Shown in pieces: positions 91 through 56,547 of a DNA stretch of 64,000 nt (position 1 is its first letter; the number at the start of each line of letters is the position of its first letter). Location of the stretch: IMG/VR virus record IMGVR_UViG_3300022821_000014, positions 26,968 through 90,967 of that record; one strand, 5' to 3'. The stretch is from a virus. Made by a program: the position numbers and the translations under genes. A model generated the notes under the pieces. It was not told the DNA's origin and searched no databases. It worked only from the letters and a program-made list of their open reading frames with translations.

Positions 91-161
91 ACTGTTGGTT
101 CTTGGGTCTCCACAAGTTCATCCATGACTTGCTCAACCAATAGTTCGATTAGCTTTTTCAT
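66..161 (-). pseudogene. 31-aa leader-only gene stub (MKKLIELLVEQVMDELVETQEPTVYFDTFDQ)
   Basis: ATG overlaps the upstream TGA (ATGA); sequence is the shared leader motif; ends inside the convergent HEG tail. Confidence 0.55.
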
Positions 162-1276
162 CCGTATGTGTGTTTCACTTGCATCTTGGTCTGGATAGCT
201 TTAAACTTATTCAAGTCAATAAAGCGGACGTCGTAGACCTTGTCTAGACCATATTCAAATACCGTTTTGATTATGTCCCTTGAATTTGACATTTCCCTGG
301 TCCACGAATTACTGTCTATATCGATACCAAGCTTTGGCTCTTCACCCTTTGAGAGTTTGGCCTGAGCAGCCTCTGGGAAATCTGAGAGCGGCGCTTCGAC
401 TGCCACTAGTAGTCTTGAACCACGAGGAATTTTAAGAGTATCAGAGTCTACAACCCACTCCCCCTCTGTAGAATATGTGCGAACTGAATCAACGATAGCC
501 TTCTTCACGTGGGATGTCCACATGTCTAATGAGACATCCTTGAATTCCTGTCGGTGTGTTGCCTTATCAACTTCCATCTTGAGGTAGCCAGCAAATTCTT
601 TAGGAGTGTCAAGAGTAAACCCACCATCTCCATATGGCGCCAGAATTTTATACCCAGGTAAATACCCGTCTCGCATCGAGCGCCCCAAGTCTTCCAAGAC
701 TTTGTCTCCGTCTTTAATCATATTTTTGGCCAGGTGACTCCAAACGTTGTCAATAATACGGCGGTTTCCCCTTGGCGCCTCGTCTGCATTGAAAATGCGT
801 CGCAGATAAGCTAAATCATCCCGAGTCAGGTCGTACGGATCATCATAGCGTACTCGGTCAACACGGCCTTGATTATCATTCATCAGTTTCTTGGCATCCA
901 TCACTAAAACAGCGTTGCGTCCAATACCGAGCCAATGCATCAGGATTTTGCGATTGTCAGAAATGCCCGATACCCCATGGAGAACACCATCGGCGAGGTC
1001 TTCTACTTTGTCCGTAACCTTTTCGTTGATTGTTGTTACGAGCCAAAATACGTTTGGGTTGCCTGGTGTAGACTTCGCTTCATCTAAAACTTCTTTTACG
1101 CACTCACTAATGAGATTTTGCAGTTCTTGCTTTTTGTTCATTTCATGTCGACTGAGTTTTTTGAAGTGCGCTAAATTAAAACCTCTGAAGGCTTCCGTTA
1201 GTGGAGCCCGCTCAGCTTCAACAAACACCTCTCTAACACATTCGCTGATGAGGACTTGCAACTCCTGTTTCTTCAT
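158..1276 (-). CDS. Hypothetical protein with doubled N-terminal leader; paralog of 1273-2271
   Basis: 372-aa ORF; KKQELQxLISECVxEV occurs twice; shares VFWxVT, GVxGISD, WLGxxRNAVLV and YxxEGEWxV with its neighbour. Confidence 0.85.
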   Translation of the reverse strand: MKKQELQVLISECVREVFVEAERAPLTEAFRGFNLAHFKKLSRHEMNKKQELQNLISECVKEVLDEAKSTPGNPNVFWLVTTINEKVTDKVEDLADGVLHGVSGISDNRKILMHWLGIGRNAVLVMDAKKLMNDNQGRVDRVRYDDPYDLTRDDLAYLRRIFNADEAPRGNRRIIDNVWSHLAKNMIKDGDKVLEDLGRSMRDGYLPGYKILAPYGDGGFTLDTPKEFAGYLKMEVDKATHRQEFKDVSLDMWTSHVKKAIVDSVRTYSTEGEWVVDSDTLKIPRGSRLLVAVEAPLSDFPEAAQAKLSKGEEPKLGIDIDSNSWTREMSNSRDIIKTVFEYGLDKVYDVRFIDLNKFKAIQTKMQVKHTYG

Positions 1277-2271
1277 TGCTTTGATTTCCTTGTCCAGAAT
1301 TTTTTCTTGTATGCATCAAATTTCTTCATTGAGATGAACTTGAGTCGGTAGTGGTTTTCAAGCCCATACCGTTTAGCTAGCGCCATAATCTCCAGCGCTT
1401 GTTTCTCTTGTACCATCTGCGGTGTAGGCCAGCCATTTACATGCGATCTAGGGTCTGGGTCTTGAGCAAATTCCTCACGGGCCTCATCGGAAATTGTCTT
1501 GGGGTCCACGTCAACGCCAATAAACAATATGCTGTCCTTAGGGACTGACATAGCATCGTCTTTGACAAACCATTCACCTTCAGATCGGTAGGTGGCACCG
1601 ATGGCTTTGAGTGCCTTTTCCACGAGGGGCATCCAATCATCCAAAGTCAGCAACTCCGCATCCTTGACAATGTGTTTCTCATTGTCATTGGCAATCTTGA
1701 TTGTGGCTTTATGAATCCATGCTGTCAGATCTTTTAGGGTATTGATAGAAGGCTTCTCAGTTTTGTATGCCCTTCCATACCAACTTGGCGCCAAAGTGCC
1801 ATAGTCAATATTGTATAAGACTGTAGCCATAGGTTTACTGGCCTGCTCTGACTTCTTGCCCTGGGCCTTGACATAATCCATGACGGTTTGCATGAGGCCT
1901 GTCCAGTCGTAATCATTTTCTGGAGAGCGGTTGAAAAGCCTGAATAGGGCAGCCATCCCCTTTGAGACAAGGTAATGAGGATTGTCATACATCACACGAG
2001 AAACATTATTTACCTCAAGGAACTTCTTTGCTGGGATGACCAGGACGGCGTTTCGAGCTACTCCGAGCCATTGAACCACAATCTCCTTTGTATCGGAGAT
2101 TCCTTTGACCCCTACAAGCTCCCCCGTGGCCAGCTGCTCAAGGGTATCTTCAGAGTGTTCATCGACGGAAGTCACCATCCAAAAAACCTTGGGGATGTCC
2201 GCTTCGGTGTAAGAAGCTTCACGGAGTACCTTGCGGACCTCTTGTTCTATTAAATTATTTAGGGTGCTCAT
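1273..2271 (-). CDS. Hypothetical protein with N-terminal leader; paralog of 158-1276
   Basis: Likely start MSTLNNLIEQEVRKVLRE at 2271; shared motifs as above. Confidence 0.85.
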   Translation of the reverse strand: MSTLNNLIEQEVRKVLREASYTEADIPKVFWMVTSVDEHSEDTLEQLATGELVGVKGISDTKEIVVQWLGVARNAVLVIPAKKFLEVNNVSRVMYDNPHYLVSKGMAALFRLFNRSPENDYDWTGLMQTVMDYVKAQGKKSEQASKPMATVLYNIDYGTLAPSWYGRAYKTEKPSINTLKDLTAWIHKATIKIANDNEKHIVKDAELLTLDDWMPLVEKALKAIGATYRSEGEWFVKDDAMSVPKDSILFIGVDVDPKTISDEAREEFAQDPDPRSHVNGWPTPQMVQEKQALEIMALAKRYGLENHYRLKFISMKKFDAYKKKFWTRKSKQ

Positions 2272-2272
2272 G

Positions 2273-2443
2273 TTATCTGGTTCTCCCAACGCCACTGCCA
2301 AGGGGGTCTAGATGTGCATCTGCGTATGCGTACATCTCCTCGTAGGATTCAAGTTGCTGAAAGTGTCTGAAGTTAAACCCTCTAACGGATTCTGCCAGTG
2401 TCTTTCGCACTTGACTTTCAATTAATTTTTGCAAGGCGTACAT
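2273..2443 (-). pseudogene. 56-aa truncated paralog of the kinase-like gene (leader + RGFN head + start of Gly-rich loop)
   Basis: MYALQKLIESQVRKTLAESVRGFNFRHFQQLESYEEMYAYADAHLDPLGSGVGRTR* aligns with the N-terminus of 2443-3147; TGATG coupling. Confidence 0.7.
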
Positions 2444-3147
2444 CAATCCATAAACCCTTCTTCGGTAAGCCCATAATCAGCAATAACTAGGCGTCCATCT
2501 GTTGTCATACCCCAGTGGTCATAACGCTCAATATCCTCTATGCCTGCTCTAGTGGCCTCAAAAGCCTTTTCAAACAGTTCAAGGTCCAAGTTATTCAAAT
2601 CACTCAATTCAATAGGCTTGTTTATGGTAAATTTAGTGAACTCATCTTTGTAGTGGTTGTTATGGTATTCAATGCCTTGAACCAATGCCTCGTCGAATTC
2701 TATATTCTGGTAAGCAAGCATAATCACCCATTCCAGAGCTACCTCGCTAACATGCATTTTACTCATCAGGTCAGCATTGTCAGCGATTATTTTGACACCT
2801 TCAGCTATCAACCACATATAATTTTCAGAATCGAAGTCATAAATCTTAGCCAGGAAGTCTTCAGCACCACTTTTCGTATAAGCTTCTACTTCGTTTCTTG
2901 TCTGTGTGTTGCCACGTTTACTGTGAACTATCTTCAGTATTTTGCCTGAGCCTAGTCCAAATACAATTCTTGCTGCGCCCCTGCCAAGGCGTGGAAGATG
3001 GTCTAGCGCATATTGGACTCTCTCTTCGGGAGTTTCTAAGAGCTTGAAACGCTTCATGTTAAAACCTCTCCAAGACTCAGACAAAGAAACACCTCGTAGT
3101 TCTTCAACCACAAGGCTTTCTACAAGTTGTTTTAGCGTGTTTGTCAC
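2443..3147 (-). CDS. Protein-kinase-like (Ser/Thr or APH-fold) protein with N-terminal leader
   Basis: LGRGAARIVF Gly loop, ILKIV lysine, N-E helix, DIERYDHWG catalytic-loop-like segment, VIADYGL DFG-like motif. Confidence 0.7.
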   Translation of the reverse strand: MTNTLKQLVESLVVEELRGVSLSESWRGFNMKRFKLLETPEERVQYALDHLPRLGRGAARIVFGLGSGKILKIVHSKRGNTQTRNEVEAYTKSGAEDFLAKIYDFDSENYMWLIAEGVKIIADNADLMSKMHVSEVALEWVIMLAYQNIEFDEALVQGIEYHNNHYKDEFTKFTINKPIELSDLNNLDLELFEKAFEATRAGIEDIERYDHWGMTTDGRLVIADYGLTEEGFMD

Positions 3148-3155
3148 GCCTATAA

Positions 3156-4987: not shown

Positions 4988-7900
4988 TTACCCGCACTTT
5001 GAATGCCCACAACCTTGGCAGGTAATACAACCTTCTTGGTAAGCTAGGTCTTTTGAACTACAGTTCGGACACTTTTTGAGTGAAGGTTTAGTACCATTCT
5101 CGATGTAATGTTTGAGTACCCGCATCAGACCCTTGGCCATTGTAAACATCTCATTGTCCTTGTCAGCACCCTTTTCAATTTGTTCGGTGACATATTGGAC
5201 AGGAGCACCATGCCGAAGTGCAAGTGAAACGGTCCTAGTGAACGCACTTTCTGTGGTGTTTGCGAAAACTGATGCAAGGTCCTTGATCACAAGCTCATTT
5301 TCACCTTCACCTGTGTACAGATTGTAAGTGCCATTTTTCTTGATCACACCCCTCTTGCGACTACGTGGAAGGTGGATGTGTTCCGAGCGGCCAGCGAAAA
5401 TCTCGTAAGGTTTATCATCGTAGATCCCTACAAAGAAGTTCCACTTCTCACCACGAACCTGCATATGGTAGATGTCACAAGGGAGTTGTCCAGGGCGCTT
5501 TGGAGCATGGTGATAGGCAAATTTGTCTGATGAACGAATTTCATCCTCCGACACTAATACACCTGTACGACACTTGTCACGATACACAGTAACTCCCTTG
5601 CAGCCCGTTTCCCATCCAGCCATGTAAATGTCTTTGATTGTATCTACTGTAGTATCTTCTGGCACGTTGGTAGTGTTGCTGATTGAGTGACAAACCCACT
5701 GTTGAGCAGCGGCCTGGGCCTTTACTTTGTTTAACCAGTTAATATCGTTCGAAGTGGCGCCGTGGTAAGGACTGTCCTTTGGATCAGACTTTCCAGTTAC
5801 TTCCATCCACTTCTTAAACCAGTGATGGTAAACCGTGTATTCCTGCCACTTGTCGCCCATGTCGTCAACAAAATCAACACGGGCATCATGATCTCCTGGG
5901 TTGATCTTTCGTCGGCGCTTGTAGGACAGCATGAACGCTGGTTCAATGCCGCTGGTAGTTTGAGTAAGAACTGAAACAGAACCAGCTGGAGCTGTTGTCG
6001 TGTTTGCGATGTTCCGTCGACCGTACTTTTGCCAGGATTTTTTCATTTCTGGATCAAGGTCCATGATGCGGTTGATAAAGGGGTGATCCTTCTCAAGCTC
6101 GTAATCATACACAGGGAAGGCACCACGCTCTTCAGCAAGTTTCACGCTAGAACGGTGTGAATTTAGTGCCAGATTCTTGTATATTTCGTTGATAAGCTCA
6201 ATCGACTCTGGGGACCCGTAGACAACATTCATCGCTGCAACGGCATCACCTACCGCTGTAAGTCCAAGTCCAGTCCGTCGCCCATTTTCAGCAGTTGTTC
6301 GAATCTTGTTCCATAGATCAGCCTCCATTTTCTTTACATCAGGAGGTTCTGGATCGGCATCGATTTTCGCCAGGATTCGATCAATAGCTTCCAGCTCAAG
6401 CTCAACCAGGTCGTCCATGAGGCGCTGTGAATCCTGTACAACATTTGCAAACTCTTCCCAGTCAAATGCAGCTTCGGCTGTAAACGGGTTCTTGACGAAT
6501 GTTACAGAATTGACAAGTAGCAGTCTACACGAATCATATGGTGAGAGAGTTATTTCTCCGCAATTATGTGCAAAGGTTCCCTTGAATGACTTTGTACCAT
6601 CTTGTTGCCCTGTTATACCAGTAATGATGCCAACTGTGTGGCTGTCATCTACTGTAATATTGTACACAGAGTGTGTGCCTTCAACCTCTTCAACTAAAAC
6701 AATCTTATGGTTGTACTCAATACCTGCATCGCAAACTTCACTGTAGCTTTTAAAGCCATGCTTTATTTTTTGACCCAGCCTAAATGGGACGTTTTCTTGT
6801 TTACAGGCAGTTTCCCACTCCTTGGCCAACGGCTTTCGTCCTAGCTCGTACTGCAAGGAACTCCAAATTTTAATCTGGTCTCGCATTCGAAGCTCAGCCT
6901 TTTCTTTTGCCTTACGGTTAATGGCCTTTGTTCGCTTCGCATTTATACTCTGATCAGAATTCACGTATTCAAGTGAACATGCATGTGTACAGAAAGAAAT
7001 TTCTCTTCTGTTGTGTTCAGTTACAAATGATGTTGCACAAGTTTCGCACTCTTTCTTTACCTGAACCGTATTGTCAGAAATAAACGCCTCATAACCTTGT
7101 CTGATCATCTCTTGTAGTGTTCTAACCAAACGTGGGTCTTTGTCAGTGTGTTCATAGCCCAAAGTACTGGCGCAAAGCATAGAAAGTTCAGCAGGGCTTC
7201 GGCCTAAGACCGCATGATGCATTTTAGAGAATGTCTGTGGCAACCCTTTATTCTTGGCAAAATCTTGCCATTCCTGGTGTGAGAACCTTCGGCCAAGATC
7301 CTGAGTAAAATTCAGTGCTTCTTTATAGATTTCCTTAGATTTTTTTCCGAGGAATTTACCGTTGTTTGAACCATTGTTATCATGCGTTGCATGAAATTGC
7401 TGATGTTCACGAAAAGTCATTATCTCAAGATTATCAGGATCATTATTGGTGCCATCATAATCTTTGTGATGTACAACCAACCCTCCTTTTACCCAGCCAT
7501 TTTGTTTCTCAGCTTGGTACTTTTCGGTCCACAACTTACCTTGAGTGGCTTCAGCTATGAGTCTATGTTCGTATCTCTTTTTAGGTTCTGCCGAGCGGGT
7601 CTCAGTTTTTACTTGGTAGTATTTATTACCAGACTTATTCATGCAGACAGGAGTCTTGCTGAATGAGGGCAGGCTATCGCCAGGCACTAGATCCCTAGCA
7701 TTCTTTGTTTGACCGTCCCTGAGAATCATTTTATGATTCGGAGTGACCCTAAGGGTCGTTCCATCATCAAGCGTTATTTTTAATAGCTTCTGATTGAGGT
7801 TTGTCAGGCGAGGGTTTCTTCCTGTTTTTATTTCAACATGACCGTTTTTTGGATTTACTGAGTACAGTAGGACATCTTTACCTTCATCTGCGAGCTGTTT

Positions 7901-8833
7901 AATTGAAACAGCATCTCTACCGTCAGCCAACGCAATTAGTGTATCACTAGAAAAACATGGGTTAGTTGATACTGTTCCGAATCCTACTGATTCGTAGGCG
8001 TCTGCTGGAGAGTATTTCTTAACTGTATCCCAGAACAGAAGTCCAGGCTCAGCTGATTCATGGGCTGACTCAATAATTTCGTGCCAAAGCTCTGCTGCAT
8101 CGACCCAGGCTTCGACCTTTGGGTCTACTTTTTGAGTGATGGGCCAGCGAAGCTGAACTTCTTGACCCTTCTTGACTGCATTCATAAACTCATCCGAAAG
8201 TCGAATGGAAATGTTGGCTCCAGTCACACGCTTGCGGTCACGTTTGATGTTGATAAACGTGCGAATTTCTGGGTGGTGTACTGAGATTGAGAGCATTAGT
8301 GCACCTCGACGCCCTCCTTGTCCTACTTCACGACAGGTGTTTGAAAAACGATCCATGAAAACAGCTATACCATCCGTAGTCCTTGCTGCATTTGCCGTTA
8401 GGAGACCTTGAGGTCGGATACTTGAGATGTCAAAGCCAACACCGCCTCGGCGCTTCATCAGCTGAGCCTGTTCTTGGTCTGTCTTAAGGATACCTCCGTA
8501 AGAATCATACGGCTCCTCAATCACAAAACAGTTGGATAGAGACATAACCTGATAAGGGTTTCCGACACCAGCCATCGGCGATCCTTGGGGGATTATGTAT
8601 TTGAAATCTTTGAGGTACTGGTAAATTGCCTCTTCGGACAGCCCGTTTTTAAACTTACCTTCAATTCTTGCAAACTCGCTTGCAAGCCTCCTGTGCATAT
8701 CTTCAGGAGTTGTTTCTTCTAAACCACCTCTTGGGTTGTTTATAGCATATTTTGTAATAAAAACATTGGCTGCTAGTTCATCGTTCTTGAAATATTTTAG
8801 TGATTGCTTATGTGCTTCTTCGAATGTTGCCAT
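4988..8833 (-). CDS. nrdJ: Class II (B12-dependent) ribonucleotide reductase with intein
   Basis: SNCFV, TNP|C-GE, RRTGLG, TAPAGSVS, TTSGIEP, GCKGVTVYR; C-terminal Zn ribbon. Confidence 0.93.
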   Translation of the reverse strand: MATFEEAHKQSLKYFKNDELAANVFITKYAINNPRGGLEETTPEDMHRRLASEFARIEGKFKNGLSEEAIYQYLKDFKYIIPQGSPMAGVGNPYQVMSLSNCFVIEEPYDSYGGILKTDQEQAQLMKRRGGVGFDISSIRPQGLLTANAARTTDGIAVFMDRFSNTCREVGQGGRRGALMLSISVHHPEIRTFINIKRDRKRVTGANISIRLSDEFMNAVKKGQEVQLRWPITQKVDPKVEAWVDAAELWHEIIESAHESAEPGLLFWDTVKKYSPADAYESVGFGTVSTNPCFSSDTLIALADGRDAVSIKQLADEGKDVLLYSVNPKNGHVEIKTGRNPRLTNLNQKLLKITLDDGTTLRVTPNHKMILRDGQTKNARDLVPGDSLPSFSKTPVCMNKSGNKYYQVKTETRSAEPKKRYEHRLIAEATQGKLWTEKYQAEKQNGWVKGGLVVHHKDYDGTNNDPDNLEIMTFREHQQFHATHDNNGSNNGKFLGKKSKEIYKEALNFTQDLGRRFSHQEWQDFAKNKGLPQTFSKMHHAVLGRSPAELSMLCASTLGYEHTDKDPRLVRTLQEMIRQGYEAFISDNTVQVKKECETCATSFVTEHNRREISFCTHACSLEYVNSDQSINAKRTKAINRKAKEKAELRMRDQIKIWSSLQYELGRKPLAKEWETACKQENVPFRLGQKIKHGFKSYSEVCDAGIEYNHKIVLVEEVEGTHSVYNITVDDSHTVGIITGITGQQDGTKSFKGTFAHNCGEITLSPYDSCRLLLVNSVTFVKNPFTAEAAFDWEEFANVVQDSQRLMDDLVELELEAIDRILAKIDADPEPPDVKKMEADLWNKIRTTAENGRRTGLGLTAVGDAVAAMNVVYGSPESIELINEIYKNLALNSHRSSVKLAEERGAFPVYDYELEKDHPFINRIMDLDPEMKKSWQKYGRRNIANTTTAPAGSVSVLTQTTSGIEPAFMLSYKRRRKINPGDHDARVDFVDDMGDKWQEYTVYHHWFKKWMEVTGKSDPKDSPYHGATSNDINWLNKVKAQAAAQQWVCHSISNTTNVPEDTTVDTIKDIYMAGWETGCKGVTVYRDKCRTGVLVSEDEIRSSDKFAYHHAPKRPGQLPCDIYHMQVRGEKWNFFVGIYDDKPYEIFAGRSEHIHLPRSRKRGVIKKNGTYNLYTGEGENELVIKDLASVFANTTESAFTRTVSLALRHGAPVQYVTEQIEKGADKDNEMFTMAKGLMRVLKHYIENGTKPSLKKCPNCSSKDLAYQEGCITCQGCGHSKCG
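6563..7957 (-). mobile_element. Cis intein (465 aa) with HNH homing endonuclease in nrdJ
   Basis: Starts CFSSDT after TNP; block B VTPNHKM; HHKDYDGTNNDPDNL; VYNITVDDSH...HN followed by +1 Cys (CGEI). Confidence 0.93.
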
Positions 8834-10253: not shown

Positions 10254-10470
10254 TTACTGCTCCTGTTTTGGCCTTGTAGAGAAAAGTCTGCCATCCTCGA
10301 ATAGGTGTTTAAACGAGTCTGGTACGTTCGTAACCTACGAGCCTGGCAGTAGACAATTGCGGAGCATCGTAGCTTAAAGAGATCCGTCGTGGACAAAATT
10401 CCAAGGTAGACCAAAATGATTTGTTTACTATTTTGTTTGTAAAATACGCATAAAACACGTATTTATGGTT

Positions 10471-11028
10471 ATGAAAAAAGGCTACCTAAAACAGCTAATC
10501 GAAATGGCCGTTTCGGCGGTCCTAAAAGAAATTGATAATAATGATGAATCTCATCTAGTGCCAGATGAACAAGGTGAATTTCATTCATCGGATGGTGACG
10601 ATTCTAGATTTTGGGGTAATCGTGGGGCAGGTATTTTACTGGTCGCTCAAGATACGGGCAAACTTCTTCTTGTCCTCCGTAGCGGTTATGTGAATGAACC
10701 AGGTACCTGGGGCGTCCCAGGCGGGAAGATAGATGATGAGGATGAATCCCCAAGTGTTGCGGCCAATAGAGAAGCTGAGGAGGAGCTAGGATACTCGGGC
10801 CCTATAGACCTCGTCCCTGCTCATGTCTTCAAATCAGGCAAGTTTCGATTCTACAACTTCATTGGTGTCGTACCAAATGAGTTTAAACCCACACTTGACT
10901 GGGAAAATGATGATGTAGGTTGGTTTTCAATTAACGACCTTCCTTCACCACTACATTTCGGTATTCAATCACTGCTAACAAACTCCGAAAATCAAATCCT
11001 AGACGTGTTCAACTCAGTAGGTCATTAG
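10471..11028 (+). CDS. NUDIX hydrolase with N-terminal leader
   Basis: Nudix box GGKIDDEDESPSVAANREAEEELG; leader LKQLIEMAVSAVLKE. Confidence 0.88.
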   Translation: MKKGYLKQLIEMAVSAVLKEIDNNDESHLVPDEQGEFHSSDGDDSRFWGNRGAGILLVAQDTGKLLLVLRSGYVNEPGTWGVPGGKIDDEDESPSVAANREAEEELGYSGPIDLVPAHVFKSGKFRFYNFIGVVPNEFKPTLDWENDDVGWFSINDLPSPLHFGIQSLLTNSENQILDVFNSVGH

Positions 11029-13438: not shown

Positions 13439-13846
13439 CTAGCCTATTATGACCAATTCAACATGTCCACTATCCTTAATCGACAGGAACAAACTTTCTG
13501 TTTTAAACTTGTCAATCTTATACAGTGGAATTTCTGTACCAGCTAGAATCAAGCTGCCAAAAACAACTTCGTCTGTGTTACAAGGACTAATCTCTGGTGG
13601 TCTAAAATTAATGAGAACTTCCATGATTACGCTAACCAAACTTTCAGGGTCGAGTGAGATCGCCTTGACAATTCCAAGCTCATCTTGTATTGACATTATT
13701 AGTGGCATGAGGGTATGATACCACTCGTATACACTGTACCGACCTGTACTCCCACTATTCCAGTCATCTGATAACACATCACCTGTTTTGGGGTCTACTA
13801 GCTTTCCTGGCAATCTTGACCAATATCTTCTGGTGGCGAGTTTCAC
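13439..13846 (-). CDS. Hypothetical protein
   Basis: 135-aa ORF coupled to recA-C stop. Confidence 0.6.
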   Translation of the reverse strand: MKLATRRYWSRLPGKLVDPKTGDVLSDDWNSGSTGRYSVYEWYHTLMPLIMSIQDELGIVKAISLDPESLVSVIMEVLINFRPPEISPCNTDEVVFGSLILAGTEIPLYKIDKFKTESLFLSIKDSGHVELVIIG

Positions 13847-14805
13847 TTTCCATGCGCCTTTAGTGCCTCAGCCTCTTCAACGGAATCCTTGTTTACACCC
13901 GCAAAAGTCAAATGTTCCTTTGCATCACGTTGCATGACCAATGCATCGGTATATAGTGCGTCAACGTACTCTTGGTAAGCAGGGTTGTAAAGAACCCTGT
14001 TGAAATTAGGCTTGTAGAATTTTTCCTCAACAAGAATTTCACCCGTACTCTGGTCAGTCACAGTGAATGTTTTCCAAGCAGCTGTGCCAGCGACGAGGAT
14101 CGATTTCCCGTTATGAACTACACCGTAAGCATCCTTATCTTGTTTGATAACTTCCGTACAATGTGCACGAAACAAGTCAAAAACTTCTTCATGTTCAACA
14201 ACGCCGACGCCGAAGATAATCTGGAACTCACAAGTGCGGAATGGCCGAGCTACACGGTTCTTGATCGTCTTGGCTTTCACCTTAATGCCAATGACGTTCC
14301 CTGCATTATCTTTAATTTGCTGCTGCCCAGTAGAAGAAATACGAACACGGACTGAACTTGCGTAAGGGATAGCCATCCCACCAGGTGTTGTAGTGTTGTG
14401 GTTAATAAACCCTTCAGCAATATAGTTGTGAGTGTCTTCCACTTCGCAATCAACAACTTGTATGGGGTGTTGTACTTGTTCAGCACCAATGTAGTCTTCA
14501 AGACGAATATACTCGCCATCAACAAAGATCTTATGGTCTTTGGTGCCGTGAAGAGTATTTGCTTGGTAGTGCTCGTCTGCATTTTGTTTGACGACAAACG
14601 TTTTCAGTGGCTTCCAAACTTCCTGCTTGGATTCGTGATCATATGAGAGGATTTCATATTTTTCATGTTCTATATTGTAGATTTCTGGCGTATTTAGATC
14701 TTCTATACCTATACGTTTTGCCAATTCACGAAATGTGATTTCCTCTTCCACGAACTGACGTTCATGCCTTGTTTCAAGATTGTGTTTTTTTATTTCGGTT
14801 TCCAT
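13843..14805 (-). CDS. recA: RecA C-terminal half fused to a long C-intein (IntC about 14395-14805)
   Basis: Block B GTKDHKIF, block F VVDCEVEDTHNY, block G INHN then TTTPGGMAIPYASSVRVR...KNRVARPFR; start at 14805 is inferred. Confidence 0.88.
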   Translation of the reverse strand: METEIKKHNLETRHERQFVEEEITFRELAKRIGIEDLNTPEIYNIEHEKYEILSYDHESKQEVWKPLKTFVVKQNADEHYQANTLHGTKDHKIFVDGEYIRLEDYIGAEQVQHPIQVVDCEVEDTHNYIAEGFINHNTTTPGGMAIPYASSVRVRISSTGQQQIKDNAGNVIGIKVKAKTIKNRVARPFRTCEFQIIFGVGVVEHEEVFDLFRAHCTEVIKQDKDAYGVVHNGKSILVAGTAAWKTFTVTDQSTGEILVEEKFYKPNFNRVLYNPAYQEYVDALYTDALVMQRDAKEHLTFAGVNKDSVEEAEALKAHGK

Positions 14806-15619
14806 AAGTTTCTGTCTTTCGGTGGCAAGCTTCACACAATGTTCTTCCGTTTGAGGTTCTCCAAAGAGGTTCATATCTTTTTGCCTCTTCAACAGATTTG
14901 ATATTACCTTCTTCTAAAAGCAAACAAAAAGGATAAATGTGATCTACGTGCAATTTTTCTGTTCTATCGCATCTGATGCATTTGTGCTCATCACGTTTCA
15001 GAGCACTCTGCCTCCATTTTCGATATGCGTAACTTTTCCTAATCAAACTAGCGGTTTTCGTTAAACCACTTTTCCAATTTGGATTTTTTTCTTTTCTTTT
15101 TGGGTTTGCTTTATTGTATCTTATTATCCAAGAACGCAATTTTTTCCTGTGTTCCTCGGTCGGCTGATATCTTGGACTTGGTATAGCTTTTATTGGATAA
15201 AACTGGCTAAGCTTGTCTATAATTCGTTTTGTTTTTCTTAGTTTGAGATTTAGTTTATTGGCTATGTGCCCGTAAGGTACTTCCGCCTGGCACAATGCAA
15301 TTATTTGTTCATAATCTTCTGGTGATAAATCCTGGGGCAGGTATTTGATCTGCTTTTTAGCGCACTGATCCCGAACATATCTGCGATAAACCCTATCGGA
15401 AATTCCTAGTTTAGTCTTAATCCACCTGGGCGGGACGAACCTTTTATCCCAATAACCGTGAAGTTATTTAACTTGTTCCTCCGAAAGGATAACCTTCTGA
15501 GCTTCTCCAATGTTTCTTCGCCGCTCTTTCGAAAAGACCTTTCCCGTATTCGCTGCTGCGATTTTCCGCCTTGTTTCTTTTGAGTGTGCATACCTTTTTT
15601 TGTTCTTTGCTGGTTTCAT
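14774..15619 (-). pseudogene. Free-standing NUMOD3 + HNH homing endonuclease with an in-frame TAA at 15464-15466
   Basis: HSKETRRKI NUMOD3 repeats; the same frame continues past the TAA into RDEHKCIRC...HVDHI...NGRTLCEACH. Confidence 0.78.
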
Positions 15620-15623: not shown

Positions 15624-16358
15624 CTAAACATACTTGCGAATTCGAATCCTAGTGTCTGGAGTAACGCAAGGGTCTCCAAACATGACACCGATCTTCTGAC
15701 GTTGTTGGTTAATGAGAAGGAAGAGGACATTTTGGTTACCAATAATATTGACGATTTTACGCATGCCTTTACCTAACACACGGGCTTGGAGGCCAATCGT
15801 GTTAGAGTCATAATCGCCCTCAAGCTCAGCTTTAGGAGACGAGGCGGCAATAGAATCCCACACGATTGTTACTGGAACATTCTTTTGCATAGCACGAGCC
15901 TTAAGGATCGTTGATTCAGCAATTTTGAAAATTTCTTCCGTGCACGCTGTCTGACAAAAGATGAAACGGTTACTTACGTCGATACCAATTGCACTAAGGT
16001 TATCAAGGCTAGTGGCGTTTTCCGTATCTATGTAAACAACTATTCCTCCCATCTTCTGGGTCGCCTTAGAGGCTTCGAAAGCAATGTGTGATTTGCCGCT
16101 TGATGTTGGCCCCTGAATTTCTACAATCCTACCTTCTGGAAAGCCCCCGACTGCTTGGTTTGCAATGATCGCATCAAGCTGTCGTGAGCCTGTGCTAATC
16201 CATCGTTTGATATTTGTTGGGGCGTCATCGGTAGAAAGATTGAAAGCGATATTCTCGCCGTTCTCCTTGTTCAACTGCTTAATAAGGTCAGTTGTAAAGT
16301 CATCACCCATGTCATCTGCACTGGCGGTGTCTGTTGTTGTTTTTTTCTTTTTGGCCAC
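15624..16358 (-). CDS. recA: RecA N-terminal half ending in a 14-aa N-intein (15627-15668)
   Basis: ISTGS, GRIVEIQGPTSSGKS, VWDSIAA, INQQRQKIGVMFGDP|CVTPDTRIRIRKYV*. Confidence 0.92.
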   Translation of the reverse strand: MAKKKKTTTDTASADDMGDDFTTDLIKQLNKENGENIAFNLSTDDAPTNIKRWISTGSRQLDAIIANQAVGGFPEGRIVEIQGPTSSGKSHIAFEASKATQKMGGIVVYIDTENATSLDNLSAIGIDVSNRFIFCQTACTEEIFKIAESTILKARAMQKNVPVTIVWDSIAASSPKAELEGDYDSNTIGLQARVLGKGMRKIVNIIGNQNVLFLLINQQRQKIGVMFGDPCVTPDTRIRIRKYV

Positions 16359-20829: not shown

Positions 20830-21144
20830 CTAAACTCCATTTTTATTATTCTCCTTGAGGCGGTCCTCAATGAGCTTATATAACAACTCGGCATCATGCT
20901 GGTTAGCACGATGTCTTCCCGAGTTCGTTTGCTTATGTGTAAGTGCCTCATCCATAAATTGTGACACTCTATCGTCCCTTAAAGAAACAAGCTCAACAAC
21001 ATAAGTCAAAAATTGTTGAGGCGTAAGACCTCTCTTGAAGAGCACCTTGCGAAGCTCTTTTAAAGAATCAGAATCGAAATCAAGGACGATTTTCGTCTTT
21101 TTGATGGACACTTTAGCCTCCAACGGGGCCAGTGACACCTGCAC
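20830..21144 (-). CDS. Hypothetical protein (start uncertain)
   Basis: 104-aa ORF in operon. Confidence 0.55.
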   Translation of the reverse strand: MQVSLAPLEAKVSIKKTKIVLDFDSDSLKELRKVLFKRGLTPQQFLTYVVELVSLRDDRVSQFMDEALTHKQTNSGRHRANQHDAELLYKLIEDRLKENNKNGV

Positions 21145-21778
21145 GTGGCTCAGGGTTTTGTGGCAAGTTCTGAGAACTTACCTCATCTTCCGTTGGCCTA
21201 AGGTCGTAGCTTGTGTCAAGAATCTCCATCATTTCTTTTGCTGTTCTCTCATCGTAGTTACTCTGAACATACTTTTCAGCACGGTTCAGGATCAGTGTGT
21301 TTAGATCAATCAGTGATGGAAGGTTATTAGTAAGCCTCGCCACGCTTCTTGTAAAGTCTTGTAGGTTGATCTTAGGGGTGTTTATAACTGGTTGTTCGCC
21401 AGCACCTGCGTCTTCACCATCTGCGGCTGGGTCTTCTTCGCCTAGATCACCACCTAGATCACCACCTAGGTCACCACCCAAATCCCCTCCGAGGTCAAGG
21501 CCGCCTTCTGCGTCAGCTTCGTCGTCAACTGGTTCTTCATCTTGTTCAAGCAGGAAATCAACAAGTGAGTCAACATTTGCCGATTCGAACATTTCAGAGG
21601 TAGGAATAGCTTCACGTTCATATTGAACGAAGTACCGATCGATTGCTTGGTCCAACGAAAAAGCCTTGTCAGCCACACTTGCAAAATCCTGCATGGCTTC
21701 TGGGCGTTCTTGTGGTTGATATTCTTTTAGTAAGCTCTCAAGCAACACTTCAAGATTGTTTTTGTTTTTCTTGCGCAT
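21113..21778 (-). CDS. Acidic protein with leader-like N-terminus, possible head/core protein
   Basis: LEVLLESLLKE; LLEQ followed by a D/E/G-rich linker. Confidence 0.7.
   Translation of the reverse strand: MRKKNKNNLEVLLESLLKEYQPQERPEAMQDFASVADKAFSLDQAIDRYFVQYEREAIPTSEMFESANVDSLVDFLLEQDEEPVDDEADAEGGLDLGGDLGGDLGGDLGGDLGEEDPAADGEDAGAGEQPVINTPKINLQDFTRSVARLTNNLPSLIDLNTLILNRAEKYVQSNYDERTAKEMMEILDTSYDLRPTEDEVSSQNLPQNPEPRAGVTGPVGG
21441..21496 (-). repeat. Degenerate 12-bp tandem repeat encoding (GGDL)n
   Basis: CCTAGATCACCA-like units; protein DLGGDLGGDLGGDLG. Confidence 0.8.
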
Positions 21779-32632: not shown

Positions 32633-33388
32633 TCACAACGACTCCAAATATGCTGGGTTCGTTGTTGTGCCTCTTCTGTAACAATAGAAAGGCATCTTGA
32701 GAACCGATGTTCGTTGAAGTAGAAGTGTCATCTTCGTGTTAAAGTCACTATCTTCGGCTTTCTGACACCTTAGTCCCAAGTTACCTGGCATGAACTTCAT
32801 GCCATGATCCCAGAGCTGCCTGTAGAAAAGTGCTGATGCGCCATGCGTCTCGAAGCTTGGACCTACGTAGTAGTGGTTGATGCCACCCGTTTTGAATCCC
32901 GTAAAAACGTGCTGCACGACTGCGGAATGTGGCATGATGTCTGACTCGGTTGGCCCGTCTGAATCTACTAAAACTGCCTGTGCTTTATCCATTTCCTCTT
33001 GTGTCCCACAATTAGCAAAACCGCATAGTGTATGATGGCTTTTCATTTTCTGAAGGGTTTTTACCTGCCACTCCAGCCTTTGCGGACATGAAGCATCATC
33101 AGCATCTTGAGTTGTCACTAAGTCACCAGTCGCTTTGGCATCGATGCCATGGTTCAGTGCGAACCACTTTCCACGATTACTAGGGAGGAAAATTGGCTCA
33201 ACAATTCGGTCATCAAGAGTGACGAGTTTATTAATCACCTCACGTGAGTTGTCGTTGGAACAATCATCTACGATGATCACTTCAACATTTTTGTATGTCT
33301 GGTTCAAAACGGACGTGACGGCTTGTTCAATGAATTGTGCATGATTGAAATTGGCTACGATCACCGAAATTTTAGGCGTGTCAGTCAT
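32633..33388 (-). CDS. GT2 glycosyltransferase
   Basis: ISVIVANFN, SVLNQT, IIVDDCSND, QDADD, AEDSDF. Confidence 0.92.
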   Translation of the reverse strand: MTDTPKISVIVANFNHAQFIEQAVTSVLNQTYKNVEVIIVDDCSNDNSREVINKLVTLDDRIVEPIFLPSNRGKWFALNHGIDAKATGDLVTTQDADDASCPQRLEWQVKTLQKMKSHHTLCGFANCGTQEEMDKAQAVLVDSDGPTESDIMPHSAVVQHVFTGFKTGGINHYYVGPSFETHGASALFYRQLWDHGMKFMPGNLGLRCQKAEDSDFNTKMTLLLQRTSVLKMPFYCYRRGTTTNPAYLESL

Positions 33389-43395: not shown

Positions 43396-44940
43396 ATGAA
43401 TAATCCAAAACTTACAATATTGATTGAGCGAATTGTTGACGAAGTCCTCAAAGAGGACCGAGCTGACATTTCTGCTGACTATGTTGCTTCTATAAAAAGC
43501 AAAGACCCAGAGCTGTATAATGACCTTATGCAGCATGCTGAGTTTGTCATCCAAGCTACGAAAAACAAGTATAAACCATCTGATAAACTTGTTACCATAC
43601 ATCGTCTGTTGAATTCGGATCCAAACCTTGACCCGAGATCTTCAGGAGATACACATGGTGTCCGCCTTTTTATCGACTACCTCGCACGTGAGGAAGGTAA
43701 GGATTCAGAGGACTCCAGAGAGTTTGCTGGCAAAGCTAAGCGATGGTATCAATCTACGATTGATGCTTTGCTCAAAAAAGTCTTCCAGGAATCAACTACT
43801 GAAAAGAAGCGTAAAGTGCTAAGTGAAGCAGTTAGAAAGCCTTTCAACATGGACCTGCCTAGGGATCTACTAACCTTGGCAGATATCTTCACCCTAAACA
43901 GCTTTCAGCTAGTTGTTGTGGGTGGAGCGGTTCGTGATGCTCTATTGGGTAAGGAACCAAAGGACTACGACGTTGCAACAAACGCACAGCCCGACGAGGT
44001 GTTGTCTATGTTGGCAGGGCACCCACAGTTCAAGACACTGGAAATCGGCAAATCCTTTGGTGTTATTAACGTAATCACTCCCGAAGGGAATGAATACGAA
44101 GTAGCTACCTATCGAAATGATATTGGAAGTGGACGTCGGCCTGATGCAGTTGAATTTACTACAATTGAGAACGACGTAAAGAGACGAGACCTTACAATCA
44201 ATGCACTCTTCTTTGACATTGCTGAGCAAGAGATCATCGATTATGTCGGCGGCATCAAAGATTTGGAGGCTGGGCGCATCCGAGCGGTTGGCGACGCCAA
44301 AGAAAGATTTGATGAGGACCCGCTTCGTATCCTACGTGCAATTAGGTTCTCAGCACGAATGGGTGCAGGGCTTGATGACAATACTGAAGAAGCTATCCGC
44401 AACGACAACACACTAAGAGGTGTCTCACCTGAGAGGGTTCGTGACGAGTTCCTCAAGTCAATCAAGACTGCCAGGTCAGTTCCAGCCCTGATGAGGCTTT
44501 ACGACAGTTTTGATCTCTGGGGACAAATCCTTCCAGGATTGAAAATCAACACGTGGTATCAAGAGACAAAAAACATTCCAGTGCTGCTTTCTTTACTTCT
44601 CCGTGAGAATCCTCCCAAGAGCCTGGGCAAAAAGATGAACAAGTTGAAATACAGTGTCGTTGAAACTCGTCAAATTATGTTTTTAACGATGTTCCAGGGT
44701 TTGACACCAGAAAACGCATATCAAATGAAGAAGCTGTGGAAATCAACCAGATTGACAGACCAGGATCTCGAAGAGTTCGCTAGGCTGAGTAACCACCCTA
44801 AAATGCAGCTTGTAAAGGCATTCAACCAGTACACACCTACGGTGGACGGGCAAGAACTGTTGGCACAGGGCTTCAAGGGTCGTGAGCTTGGACAGGAAAT
44901 TGAACGCAGAGAGATGGATCTGTTCAAAAGGCTTATCTAA
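43396..44940 (+). CDS. cca: CCA-adding tRNA nucleotidyltransferase (class II) with a ~140-aa N-terminal extension
   Basis: VGGAVRD, KDYDVAT, EVATYR, RRDLTINA, DEDPLRILRAIRF, SPERV. Confidence 0.92.
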   Translation: MNNPKLTILIERIVDEVLKEDRADISADYVASIKSKDPELYNDLMQHAEFVIQATKNKYKPSDKLVTIHRLLNSDPNLDPRSSGDTHGVRLFIDYLAREEGKDSEDSREFAGKAKRWYQSTIDALLKKVFQESTTEKKRKVLSEAVRKPFNMDLPRDLLTLADIFTLNSFQLVVVGGAVRDALLGKEPKDYDVATNAQPDEVLSMLAGHPQFKTLEIGKSFGVINVITPEGNEYEVATYRNDIGSGRRPDAVEFTTIENDVKRRDLTINALFFDIAEQEIIDYVGGIKDLEAGRIRAVGDAKERFDEDPLRILRAIRFSARMGAGLDDNTEEAIRNDNTLRGVSPERVRDEFLKSIKTARSVPALMRLYDSFDLWGQILPGLKINTWYQETKNIPVLLSLLLRENPPKSLGKKMNKLKYSVVETRQIMFLTMFQGLTPENAYQMKKLWKSTRLTDQDLEEFARLSNHPKMQLVKAFNQYTPTVDGQELLAQGFKGRELGQEIERREMDLFKRLI

Positions 44941-51670: not shown

Positions 51671-52567
51671 ATGAGCAATAAGAAGATTGTCAAAAAGGGT
51701 GTCACTCAACTACAGGATCGTATTCGCACGATTGTAAAGGAAGAGGTTCGTTCAGCTCTCCGTGAAGAGAATGTCAGTGTTTGGTTCACGAAGTTGGGTG
51801 GCAAGCAATCGGCCTTTGCAGGTTGGCTGATGCGACAGTACTTCAACCCTGATAAGCACTCAGGCAAGGTTTGGTATGATGACTCCGTGACGAAGGACAA
51901 TGTCCTCGAATACGTAACCAAGATGGCAGCGAGCGGAGTTTTCCCACAGACCCCAAAGTCTCTCTATAGCCTGTTTAAGCTCAAGGGACAGCTTCAGACG
52001 TCTATGGGACAGCTGGACAAGTCTGGCGAGCTGGATGCAATGTCTGATTACCTTGACGATGAAGAGGATGAGGATGAAAAGGCTACCTACCAGACTGGCG
52101 AGGTATCTCTCAAGGACATCGGTAAGGAACTTGGAGGAATCACACCCACCATGGTCAACAAGCTTGCTGCGAGCGGGATGGACAAGTTTCGCTCGTTGAC
52201 TCAAGGACAAGCACTTGACAATGTTGACGGTGCCGCTCTGGAAGAGTTTTTGAAGAAGATTCAAGATGCCCGAGCAGACGCAGCAGACGAGTTTGTTCAG
52301 AGGCTTGCAGATGCAACAACCATTGGTGAATTCATCAAGAGCCTCCAGAAGGGCCAAATTCTTTCGCCCACTGATCTCAAGCTGGTCACCAAGAATGAGC
52401 TGGAAGGCCTCCGTATGCTCCAGAAGCGTGACCCAGAAGTGGCCAAGCAGATGCTCATGCAGGACATTCAGGACGACAACAACCTTTTTAAGTCATACCA
52501 GGCTATGGTTTCCAAGAAGGTCTTCCCAGGGAAGAAGCGTGGTCGTCCGAAAAAGATCAAGAACTAG
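51671..52567 (+). CDS. Leader-bearing protein with a sigma-region-4-like HTH and a C-terminal AT-hook
   Basis: IRTIVKEEVRSALRE; SLKDIGKELGGITPTMVNKLAASGMDKFR; KKRGRPKK. Confidence 0.65.
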   Translation: MSNKKIVKKGVTQLQDRIRTIVKEEVRSALREENVSVWFTKLGGKQSAFAGWLMRQYFNPDKHSGKVWYDDSVTKDNVLEYVTKMAASGVFPQTPKSLYSLFKLKGQLQTSMGQLDKSGELDAMSDYLDDEEDEDEKATYQTGEVSLKDIGKELGGITPTMVNKLAASGMDKFRSLTQGQALDNVDGAALEEFLKKIQDARADAADEFVQRLADATTIGEFIKSLQKGQILSPTDLKLVTKNELEGLRMLQKRDPEVAKQMLMQDIQDDNNLFKSYQAMVSKKVFPGKKRGRPKKIKN

Positions 52568-53426: not shown

Positions 53427-53963
53427 ATGACCAAGAAGAACAAGCCAAATAAAAACCTCCGTAAGGAATTCGAGCTACATAAGGAGCGTCGTTCACGTCA
53501 CTTAAAGAACCTCATAGAAGAGTCTATTATCAACGTTCTGGCCGAACAGGATGCAGCAGCAGCCCAGCAAGCTGCAATGACGGCCGAAACCCCACCCCCA
53601 GTAGCTACCCCTGAGAACCAAGCTCAAGGTGCTCAAGACAACATGGTCAAAGAGCAATACACGGTGGATGGCATGATTGACGAGTTAAATGCTATTCGAG
53701 GAGGCAGGTCCTTTTCCGATCCTGAGGTCTACGGCAAACTTGTGACCTTCTTCAAAACCCTAGGTGAAGAGCAAAAAAACACTTTAGATACTTTGCTAAC
53801 GCAGATCGCTGAGCTTATCACAGGAGTTGATGATGCACCAGCACCGCAACAAGACCAGAGCGCAGGTGCTCAACCGCCAAATCCTGGAGGTGCTCCGCAA
53901 CAGAACGCACCAATGCCTGGGGCACAACAAGCAGCAGGCGCCGCCGGCGTCGGAGTAGCCTAG
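53427..53963 (+). CDS. Leader-bearing Q/A/P-rich protein, possible head protein
   Basis: LKNLIEESIINVLAE; TAATTA and GGAGG upstream. Confidence 0.7.
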   Translation: MTKKNKPNKNLRKEFELHKERRSRHLKNLIEESIINVLAEQDAAAAQQAAMTAETPPPVATPENQAQGAQDNMVKEQYTVDGMIDELNAIRGGRSFSDPEVYGKLVTFFKTLGEEQKNTLDTLLTQIAELITGVDDAPAPQQDQSAGAQPPNPGGAPQQNAPMPGAQQAAGAAGVGVA

Positions 53964-53965
53964 TA

Positions 53966-55175: not shown

Positions 55176-55246
55176 GCAGCATTGGTGTAGTGGAAACATC
55201 TTTGGCTTCCAACCAAAGGTCACGAGTTCGAACCTCGTATGCTGCT
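55176..55246 (+). tRNA. tRNA-Gly(TCC)
   Basis: TTTGG-CTTCCAA-CCAAA; full cloverleaf. Confidence 0.92.
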
Positions 55247-55320
55247 TTTTTCTCAGGCCCTCCCGAGGTAACTTTCGGGTCCTGCGTGAACAAGAGATTG
55301 GTTGTCTTTTCTGGGAAAAT

Positions 55321-55393
55321 GGGATGTTAGCATCAAGGAGATGCAACGGGTTCCTCGACCCTATCGAGGCAGGTTCAATTCCTGTGCATCCCA
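55321..55393 (+). tRNA. Atypical tRNA, Lys-like body with an 8-nt anticodon loop
   Basis: Body resembles 57288-57359; GGG-TTCCTCGA-CCC. Confidence 0.5.
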
Positions 55394-55409
55394 CTTACAA
55401 ATGACTAAC

Positions 55410-55482
55410 TTGGAAGGTGGATGAAGTTCACTGCTAGTTTCATCACTGTGGGGTGAGGACAGTGAGTCGCAACTCTCCCCAA
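55410..55482 (+). ncRNA. Four-way-junction RNA with potential kissing loops
   Basis: GATGAAG/TTTCATC, ACTGT/ACAGT, GAGT/ACTC; loops TTCACT and GGTGAG are complementary. Confidence 0.4.
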
Positions 55483-55485
55483 TTT

Positions 55486-55559
55486 GGGTTCTTAGTGTAA
55501 CTGGATTAGCACTCCAGATTTGTTAATCAACAGTCTGGGTTCAAATCCCAGGGAACCCA
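55486..55559 (+). pseudogene. tRNA with disrupted anticodon arm
   Basis: Good acceptor, D and T arms; CCAGA-TTTGTTAA-TCAAC is mostly unpaired. Confidence 0.55.
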
Positions 55560-55612
55560 CTGGAGCGAAAGCCCGTGCACGAAGGCTTGACAGTCGGAGA
55601 GACGACATTTCT

Positions 55613-55683
55613 AGGTCACTGGTGTAATGTAGCATGACGATCTCCAAAATCGTTCGGTCTGAGTTCAAGTCTTAGGTGGCCTG
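55613..55683 (+). tRNA. tRNA-Trp(CCA)
   Basis: ACGAT-CTCCAAA-ATCGT. Confidence 0.9.
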
Positions 55684-55745
55684 TAAATCCTAGAACTGAA
55701 GGTTCCTGCCCTGGGCAGCGAAAGCTGGTTGGTAGCCTTCAAAAT

Positions 55746-55818
55746 GTCTTCGACGCCGACAGGAACGGCAGCTCGCCTTCTAAGCGAGTTTTTGAGGGTT
55801 CGAGTCCTTCCGAAGACG
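55746..55818 (+). tRNA. tRNA-Arg(TCT)
   Basis: CTCGC-CTTCTAA-GCGAG. Confidence 0.88.
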
Positions 55819-55864
55819 CTGAGAGTGTAAGACTGCCGATTATGGCAGCCCCTGCACTCGATTA

Positions 55865-55937
55865 GGGGCATTGGTCCAGTGGTTGAGGACGCTAGGCTGT
55901 CTACTTAGAAGCACGGGTTCGATTCCCGTATGCCCCG
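55865..55937 (+). tRNA. tRNA-Asp(GTC)
   Basis: CTAGG-CTGTCTA-CTTAG. Confidence 0.88.
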
Positions 55938-56037
55938 CTAGTTTCCGTTCAGGAAACAATAAATGAGCCGTGTAGCCTGAGGGCCTAGGAGAGTCGCTAT
56001 CTCTTAGAAGTTCGAACCCCATAGGGCAGCGGCATAT

Positions 56038-56111
56038 AGGATCGTAGCATAACTGGTAGTGCGCCTCCCTGTCACGGAGCGAGTGTGCGAGTTCAAATCT
56101 CGTCGGTCCTG
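56038..56111 (+). tRNA. tRNA-Asp(GTC)
   Basis: CTCC-CTGTCAC-GGAG. Confidence 0.88.
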
Positions 56112-56256
56112 TCAAGTTCTATTTCTAGAAATATGTGTATAACCTCGATAAGTGAGGGAACTGTTTTTTCTATCCTCCTACTTAGAAGAGTAACGGCAAA
56201 TGTTTCTACCGAAAAAGTTGTTTTGCCGTGCTATTTACTGTCAAGGGTAAAAGGTT

Positions 56257-56547
56257 ATGACAAGAATCACACTTAGAACATTGAGAGCCATGATCCGTGA
56301 AGCGGTTCGTGAAGAAATGAAGAACGGCCTAAACGAGGCAGGCTTCATGGGCGCCGGCGGTAAAATGCAAGGCGCTCAACGGGGTGGAGTAGGTAGTCGT
56401 CAGGCACTTTCCAAAACTGGTGGAATGACAGGTTATTCCTCCATGAATTTGGATGAGTTGGTTGCAGCGATGAAATCAGCCTCCGAGGCAGATAAACCAC
56501 ACATCAAAAAGGCTATCACAGCTCAGCTCAAGGCAGCTGGCTGGTGA
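56257..56547 (+). CDS. Small leader-bearing protein
   Basis: MTRITLRTLRAMIREAVREEMKNGLNE; TATTTA upstream. Confidence 0.75.
   Translation: MTRITLRTLRAMIREAVREEMKNGLNEAGFMGAGGKMQGAQRGGVGSRQALSKTGGMTGYSSMNLDELVAAMKSASEADKPHIKKAITAQLKAAGW

Follow-up and report, generated by a model that had tools for sequence, protein, structure and literature searches.

A shared N-terminal leader on unrelated proteins of an uncultured huge phage, a candidate capsid-targeting sequence and propeptide

The 64,000-nucleotide stretch of DNA analyzed here (the window) spans positions 26,968 to 90,967 of the IMG/VR virus record IMGVR_UViG_3300022821_000014, of which it is the last part. Thirteen of its open reading frames (ORFs) open with a common leader, a 15-residue amphipathic motif of the form L-x-x-L-I-x-E-x-V-x-x-V-L-x-E at the protein N-terminus, and two to three more are found elsewhere in the 90,967-bp record, a density of roughly one gene in six. 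In relatives of this phage, the same type of sequence begins a conserved protein of the head module, and the residues that precede the predicted cleavage site of the capsid protein resemble it as well. Since the leader resembles both this protein start and the capsid cut site, it is probably a tag that directs a protein into the head and is then cut off, and we favor the reading that it represents an enlarged T4-style capsid-targeting sequence (CTS) combined with a propeptide.

A first-pass annotation of the window had listed ten sites at which the motif starts a protein, and translation recovered it at all of them. A loose version of the 15-residue pattern gave 10 matches where 0.57 would be expected from shuffled proteins, and eight of these fall within the first 45 residues. 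The same annotation had proposed that a hidden Markov model (HMM) of the leader be run over the genome and its relatives. We built such a model from 14 instances and scored the six frames of the record: the instances scored 7.5–16.6 bits and one ORF outside the training set 12.7 bits, while the best score on reversed sequence was 5.0. N-terminal scores across the record are bimodal, with tagged genes at 10.5–18 bits and the others at 5 or below, with one exception. The leaders of the superoxide dismutase (SOD)-like gene and of the genes at 24013 and 21113 are weak. A glycosyltransferase (32633–33388, 8.4 bits) was read as carrying the ordinary N-terminal motif of its family, and was discarded as a false positive. 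The statement that the motif is not found on replication genes also holds, as judged by N-terminal HMM scores, for ribonucleotide reductase, DnaB, FEN, dUTPase, RecA, DnaE and terminase, none of which has a leader match. The mean hydrophobic moment of the leaders is 0.43, compared with 0.26 for random 15-mers, and their net charge ranges from -3 to +2. A secretion signal was excluded on reading, the leaders being acidic to neutral and devoid of a hydrophobic core. The observation of the leader is confirmed, and the resemblance between its instances is more than chance.

The connection to the phage head comes from a comparison of head modules. Using a protease alignment, we fetched 79 further head-module loci, of which 78 were counted as independent loci with the N-terminal motif. 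Gene order in these modules is conserved: terminase, portal, p284, protease, p134, a leader-bearing protein of about 140 residues, a protein of about 80 residues, p165, scaffold and capsid protein. When an HMM made from the window leaders only was applied to the 79 loci, 69 of 1312 N-termini reached at least 6 bits, as opposed to one reversed N-terminus and two of 4200 interior segments. With an iterated model at a threshold of 7 bits, the matches lie almost exclusively on the first and second genes after the protease (31/78 and 36/74, respectively), and the window-only model scores at least 5 bits on the gene for the ~140-residue protein in 61 of the 78 loci. The ~80-residue protein is sometimes tagged too. 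The ~140-residue protein starts with MK(L/I)TKxxLKxIVKECLVEILxE-G, and has an invariant Cys, two invariant Glu, an invariant C-terminal Trp and a nearly invariant Gly; the window leader LQNLISECVKEVLDE is of the same type as this start. Judged from gene position only, we infer that the ~140- and ~80-residue proteins belong to the prohead core. The link between the leader and head assembly appears stronger than the first-pass annotation could see.

The second line of evidence concerns the end of the leader. In T4, the prohead protease gp21 cleaves after L/I-x-E (PMC9026906), and removes 65 N-terminal residues from gp23 and 10 from gp24 (PMC9546572). That the leader ends in this motif, as had been claimed, is borne out by sequence for most of the 13 different ORFs of the record that carry a leader: in eight, the Glu of [LIM]-x-E occupies motif position 15, in four more the [LIM]-x-E comes 4–8 residues later, just before the domain, and one lacks it. 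The leader ends in the window read VLKE (NUDIX and CCA enzymes), VLRE, ALRE, VLDE, VLAE and TLAE. L-x-E is invariant before RGFN in three kinase-type N-termini, and VIKE in the window, and PLKE and KLDE in the orthologs, directly precede the SOD-like domain in three phages. On the capsid side, F-L-T-E65 of T4 gp23 aligns in 50 of 50 related capsid proteins with [VLI]-L-[KR]-E, which is invariant and in most cases reads VLKE or LLRE. The 15 residues ahead of this capsid site (MAQLLENQAAQVLKE) score 7.1 bits, ungapped, with a window-only matrix, compared with 5.3 at the 99.9th percentile of random 15-mers from the record; the LLRE variant of the same stretch scores only 1.6 bits. The leader spacing V9-x-x-V12-L13-x-E15 equals that of the decapeptide removed from T4 gp24, MAKINELLRE (PMC9546572), and also matches the T4 CTS, where positions 4 and 7 serve targeting and positions 8 and 10 processing (PMC9026906). 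A parallel with phiKZ gp175, drawn in the first-pass annotation, is not needed, since the lineage has a closer, T4-type protease of the Peptidase_S77 family.

This protease is known from relatives of the phage. CheckV estimates the record to be ~20% complete, so that it represents only part of a huge phage whose genome would span several hundred kb. The replication and metabolism genes of the window include a B12-type ribonucleotide reductase, DnaB, FEN, dUTPase, RecA and DnaE, and its T4 gp17-like large terminase is ~40% identical to the terminases of Microcystis phage Mel-JY01 and Flavobacterium phage immuto. A 309-kb relative, G002 (91% complete), has 32 proteins in common with the record at ~30–60% identity and in conserved gene order, and encodes a gp21-type prohead protease (Peptidase_S77, PF03420, 88 bits), a gp23-type capsid protein and a portal. 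Given the terminase identity of ~40% to members of the T4 superfamily and the protease, capsid protein and portal of G002, the lineage is, by its sequences, T4-type. Peptidase_S77 was also found above the Pfam cut-off in two more distant huge phages, and the gp21-type protease family comprises at least 8000 protein clusters in public data. A 284,850-bp contig in the protein database carries a NUDIX protein identical to that of the window; its protease was not found among the 120 matches listed in a protein database search. The leader is not enriched in G001, a distant phage of 519 kb found through the CCA enzyme. A tblastn search of cultured phage records with the 22-residue consensus leader and the protein at 158–1276 gave no match, so that no cultured phage with proteomics was found to carry the tag. 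In the head module of G002, an ORF that reads like a peptide deformylase (L064:10163–10666; GVGLAAPQVG) lies between the protease and the leader protein.

The leaders are related as peptides and not as DNA. At 442 leader pair positions with the same residue, the codon was identical in 138 cases, compared with 139.3 expected from codon usage, and the DNA upstream of tagged genes is not conserved. Codon identity at expectation means that the leader is neither a DNA repeat nor a recent copy and that selection acts on the peptide. Because synonymous sites are randomized and upstream DNA is not conserved, the leader is taken to be old and maintained as a peptide.

The leader is found on NUDIX, SOD-like, CCA/poly(A)-polymerase-type and kinase-like folds, as assigned by Pfam and Foldseek, which agrees with the portable leader of the first-pass annotation. 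Orthologs of the CCA enzyme in G002, L008 and L009 start with it, and it is kept in orthologs of 53427 (L009 and G002), 51671 (L009) and 21113 (G002). Among 43 NUDIX homologs, 18 score 4 bits or more with the leader model, and start with ...LKQLIExA..VLKE, whereas other NUDIX orthologs, ~61% identical over the catalytic domain, begin directly at the domain; the leader is thus a dispensable add-on. In the AlphaFold2 model of the NUDIX protein, residues 5–22 form a helix (10-residue blocks with pLDDT 59–69), residues 23–52 have no regular structure, and the domain exceeds 90. The model of the kinase-like protein has the same layout of a lower-confidence helix, an irregular stretch and a confident domain. 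These observations support a portable N-terminal module that is attached to unrelated folds and is dispensable for the fold of the enzyme.

The first-pass annotation had also placed a TANTTA motif ahead of most tagged genes or their operon heads. This holds only in part. TACTTA/TAATTA is about 6-fold enriched in non-coding DNA, and TA[AC]TTA occurs 15–31 nucleotides before three tail genes and the head of the terminase operon; of 53 scaffold genes in relatives, 21 are likewise preceded by it. Its association with the leader is weak, as TA[AC]TTA lies within 110 nucleotides upstream of only 4 of 13 tagged genes, is missing from most of them, and is also present at 9 of 89 others. The T4 late promoter TATAAATA is absent from the window. 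We regard TA[AC]TTA as a candidate late-promoter element that is unlike TATAAATA of T4; as proof that the tagged genes are late genes it was rejected as too weak.

Based on the resemblance to head proteins, we propose the following sequence of events. Late in infection, tagged proteins would use the amphipathic helix to dock on the scaffolding core while the prohead assembles, through the same contacts as the ~140-residue head-module protein and the last helix in the N-terminal propeptide of the capsid protein. The T4 gp21-type prohead protease would then cut after the Glu of the terminal (V/L)-L-x-E, and the mature enzyme, freed inside the head, would leave with the DNA at the next infection. 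More tentatively, and with somewhat less than even confidence, an uncultured clade of T4-type huge phages may have converted the final propeptide helix of its capsid protein, together with the cut site, into a portable address label, which pre-loads the virion with a changeable kit of enzymes that enters the host with the DNA. This kit might consist of a CCA-adding tRNA repair enzyme, NUDIX, SOD-like, protein-kinase-like and HAD-like proteins and several unknowns. If true, it would be a giant-virus-like strategy on a scale not known for tailed phages.

Several points weigh against the proposal that the leader is a capsid-targeting sequence and propeptide. Two leaders are displaced from the extreme N-terminus, starting 25 (53427) and 17 (51671) residues from the Met. 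A PF03420 search of the 91-kb record was empty, so the gene for the prohead protease was not found there, and the record also lacks an intact capsid gene and the gene for the ~140-residue protein. For this reason, the link to protease and head module rests on relatives whose proteins are ~30–60% identical. The ~140-residue protein has no PHROG or PDB match, and hhalign comparisons of it with T4 gp68 and gp22, and of the ~80-residue protein with T4 gp67, gave no homology (0.2–2%). In length the leader exceeds the T4 CTS, with only the spacing pattern in common, and 13–16 of ~90 genes are tagged, far more than in T4. Promoter evidence for late expression is weak, with the motif at four of the 13 tagged genes, and the tagged set includes a CCA-adding enzyme, which is useful throughout infection.

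The most probable of the alternatives is that the helix is a docking or oligomerization tag for a cytoplasmic assembly (an enzyme cluster, condensate or replication/translation factory, for instance), and that the tagged proteins do not enter the capsid. A short amphipathic helix followed by a linker and an enzyme is the architecture of microcompartment encapsulation peptides (PMC12339742), the AlphaFold2 models place a lower-confidence helix ahead of the domain, and the CCA, NUDIX, SOD-like and kinase-like cargo would be useful in the cytoplasm at all stages of infection. However, no microcompartment shell gene (PF00936, E up to 1) was found in the record or in G002, and in 78 loci the leader motif stands at the start of a conserved protein whose gene lies between that of the prohead protease and those of the scaffold and capsid proteins. 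The conserved terminal L-x-E, or L/I-x-E at a variable distance before the domains, is moreover what would be expected of a protease site rather than of a docking helix, and we consider cytoplasmic docking unlikely.

Less probable still, at perhaps half that weight, is that the leader acts purely as a removable propeptide: the enzymes would stay inactive or unstable until cleavage after L-x-E by a phage protease, and the leader would play no part in packaging. Although L/I-x-E is conserved at domain junctions and the lineage has a gp21-type protease, such proteases act inside the prohead core (PMC9026906, PMC9546572), a bare cleavage site needs no conserved 12-residue amphipathic helix ahead of it, and the helix is common to the head-module protein. 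Finally, chance, compositional bias, descent of a paralogous family, or the spread through recombination of a DNA cassette made up of promoter, ribosome site and first codons is very improbable and largely refuted by the controls: amphipathic Glu/Leu-rich helices are indeed common, 158–1276, 1273–2271 and 2273–2446 do stem from tandem duplication, and one false positive (32633) was met, but the shuffle, reversed-sequence and interior-segment controls exclude chance, the unrelated folds of the tagged proteins speak against common descent, and the codon test (138 vs 139.3), together with the unconserved upstream DNA, rules out a DNA-level cassette.

The tagged genes at the start of the window lie on the minus strand. 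One of these (158–1276) encodes a 372-residue protein with no Pfam or PHROG family and has leader copies at 1217–1261 and 1079–1123. The two copies reported in the first-pass annotation are present, but they do not constitute a double tag: copy 1 sits on the fused remnant of a kinase-like N-terminus (residues 1–46), copy 2 heads the real domain (VFWLVT...), and the in-frame fusion of this degenerate N-terminus explains the apparent doubling. The adjacent gene (1273–2271; leader at 2218–2262, ending VLRE) encodes a 332-residue tandem paralog of 158–1138, and the proteins of 158–1276 and 1273–2271 are 33% identical (E 2e-46). Upstream, each of the two paralogs is preceded by a degenerate copy of the start of the kinase-like gene. 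The 57-residue ORF at 2273–2446 is such a truncated copy, with a leader at 2390–2434 (ending TLAE), an RGFN motif and a Gly-loop.

The kinase-like gene itself (2443–3147, minus strand; phrog_4301) encodes 234 residues from a GTG start, which it needs; homologs with ATG starts keep the leader. After its leader at 3091–3135 comes SLSE, which immediately precedes the conserved WRGF that opens the domain. The protein has no Pfam family in a search to E 5. Its AlphaFold2 model, calculated with nine homologs, has a helix of low pLDDT at residues 5–17 and a domain from about residue 31, and the 48 PDB matches listed by Foldseek for this model are all kinases or aminoglycoside phosphotransferases (E 6e-4), at low TM values of ~0.27–0.35. 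The conserved Gly-loop, Lys, Glu and DYG-like residues agree with a kinase fold. The earlier identification as a kinase is supported at the level of a kinase-like fold by these matches and residues, the TM values being low.

Degenerate N-terminal fragments at 2273–2446, 1139–1276 and 69–200, all on the minus strand, adjoin intact tagged genes. The first two copy the start of the kinase-like gene, that is, leader plus RGFN, with or without the Gly-loop. The third is a small ORF that copies the start of a HAD-like gene, with the weak leader MKKLIELLVEQVMDELVE followed by EPTVYFD. This placement suggests that the cargo region has undergone tandem duplication and decay more than once. The HAD-like gene lies upstream of the window (-1599 to -766) and carries an extra leader, as does a small ORF at -13529.

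The NUDIX hydrolase (10465–11028, plus strand; PF00293, 63 bits) has its leader at 10486–10530, ending VLKE, and an acidic stretch between this and the catalytic domain, which begins at about residue 53. On the minus strand, a 221-residue acidic protein (21113–21778) has a weak leader at 21710–21754, and its G002 ortholog starts ...LKRILREEFLRE. The neighboring SOD-like protein (21778–22701, minus strand; PF02777, 83 bits) has a weak leader at 22651–22695 and an N-terminal extension of ~55 residues; Pfam matches only the C-terminal domain of Fe/Mn-SOD, at residues 147–240 of 307. A 505-residue protein (24013–25530, minus strand) heads a minus-strand operon with TAATTA 15 nucleotides upstream, and its leader at 25474–25518 is followed by YLSE; the ESM Atlas clusters closest to it all consist of hypothetical viral proteins of ~500–530 residues.

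On the plus strand, the CCA-adding/poly(A)-polymerase-type nucleotidyltransferase (43396–44940; PF01743, 120 bits; phrog_2244) has its leader at 43411–43455, ending VLKE, within an N-terminal extension of 170 residues, and the Pfam head domain starts at residue 173. Its gene lies about 10 kb upstream of a tRNA array: the window contains 26 tRNA genes, 25 of them in the array (55176–63367) with HNH-type ORFs interspersed, and a tRNA-Ser at 45175. ARAGORN reports abnormal anticodon loops in two tRNA genes (55486–55560 and 60523–60595). The CCA genes of G002 (59910–61434) and L009 are split by inserted ORFs.

The remaining tagged genes of the window are also on the plus strand. A 298-residue protein with no named family (51671–52567) has a leader at 51722–51766, ending ALRE. 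In a 178-residue protein (53427–53963), with TAATTA 24 nucleotides upstream of the gene, 25 basic residues precede the leader (53502–53546, VLAE) and an Ala/Gln/Pro-rich stretch follows it. In a 96-residue protein (56257–56547), the leader at 56281–56325 is followed by GLNE and a Gly-rich stretch. Pfam searches to E 5 gave nothing credible for 158–1138, 2443–3147, 21113, 51671 and 53427. A nuclease, which the first-pass annotation had counted among the tagged enzymes, was not found among the tagged ORFs.

Several other genes of the record are interrupted or fragmentary. Two minus-strand ORFs (13843–14892 and 15624–16358) both match a single RecA-like gene of G002 (116006–117250), at 44% and 62% identity, so that recA of the window is split by an insertion. 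The DnaE-type polymerase, also on the minus strand, is in pieces (28945–30687 and 25543–27873) with a 318-residue ORF between them, and the second piece opens with an intein-like ...VHNS junction. The ribonucleotide reductase (4988–8833) has an insert resembling intein/HNH segments of the G002 portal. Short ORFs at -9235 to -8975 and -7636 to -7313, upstream of the window, and at 13439–13846 match pieces of the gp23-type capsid protein of G002 (residues 83–124, 565–599 and 446–497), with no intact capsid gene nearby.

If the tag does load the head, the proteins injected by a large, widespread group of uncultured phages could be read from genome sequence alone. Such proteins would be first-minute effectors that meet the host defenses. 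The T4 capsid-targeting principle would then extend from three small anti-restriction proteins to whole enzymes, with an origin of the tag by copying of the capsid propeptide helix and cut site being suggested, and the leader would offer a longer targeting peptide, of natural origin, with which foreign proteins could be loaded into large capsids.

Among known systems, two bear comparison besides T4. Microcompartment encapsulation peptides (Pdu/Eut) likewise combine a short amphipathic helix and a linker on diverse enzymes, and serve as an address label for the shell (PMC12339742, PMC11157265). They are not removed by a protease; here the destination would be the phage prohead, and shell genes are absent from the record and G002. 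In phiKZ, 201phi2-1 and SPN3US, a diverged gp21-like protease cuts many proteins of the large capsids after Glu, and a large mass of protein is packaged and ejected (PMC9026906, PMC7411985, PMC10052503). The phiKZ-type sites read S/A/G-x-E and have few further determinants, and a leader helix common to them has not been described, in contrast to the canonical PF03420 protease and shared helix of the present lineage. We found no paper describing such expanded tags in huge or aquatic T4-type phages.

The closest parallel is T4 itself. The CTS of internal proteins IPI–III and the gp21-removed propeptides of Alt, gp24 and gp23 are, like the leader, N-terminal tags on otherwise unrelated proteins, and both they and the leader end in L/I-x-E, the motif cut by a Peptidase_S77 protease as in this lineage (PMC9026906). 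The CTS and the leader further have in common two hydrophobic positions three residues apart, followed by hydrophobic-x-Glu (PMC9026906). In T-even phages the principle is seen at a small scale: their tagged cargo varies, and 10 or more distinct internal proteins have only the leader in common (PMC12373910, PMC3012670). On the other hand, the present leader is ~15–22 residues long as compared with 10 for the T4 CTS, and has no sequence homology to MKTYQEFIAE. Unlike the CTS, it is matched in sequence by the beginning of a conserved head-module protein, for which no T4 homolog was detected. In T4, the tags are carried by three small internal proteins and Alt; here they are carried by recognizable enzymes, on 13–16 genes per 91 kb. 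What is new relative to T4 is therefore the length of the tag, its resemblance to the end of the capsid propeptide and to the head-module protein, the enzymatic cargo, and its presence on about one gene in six.

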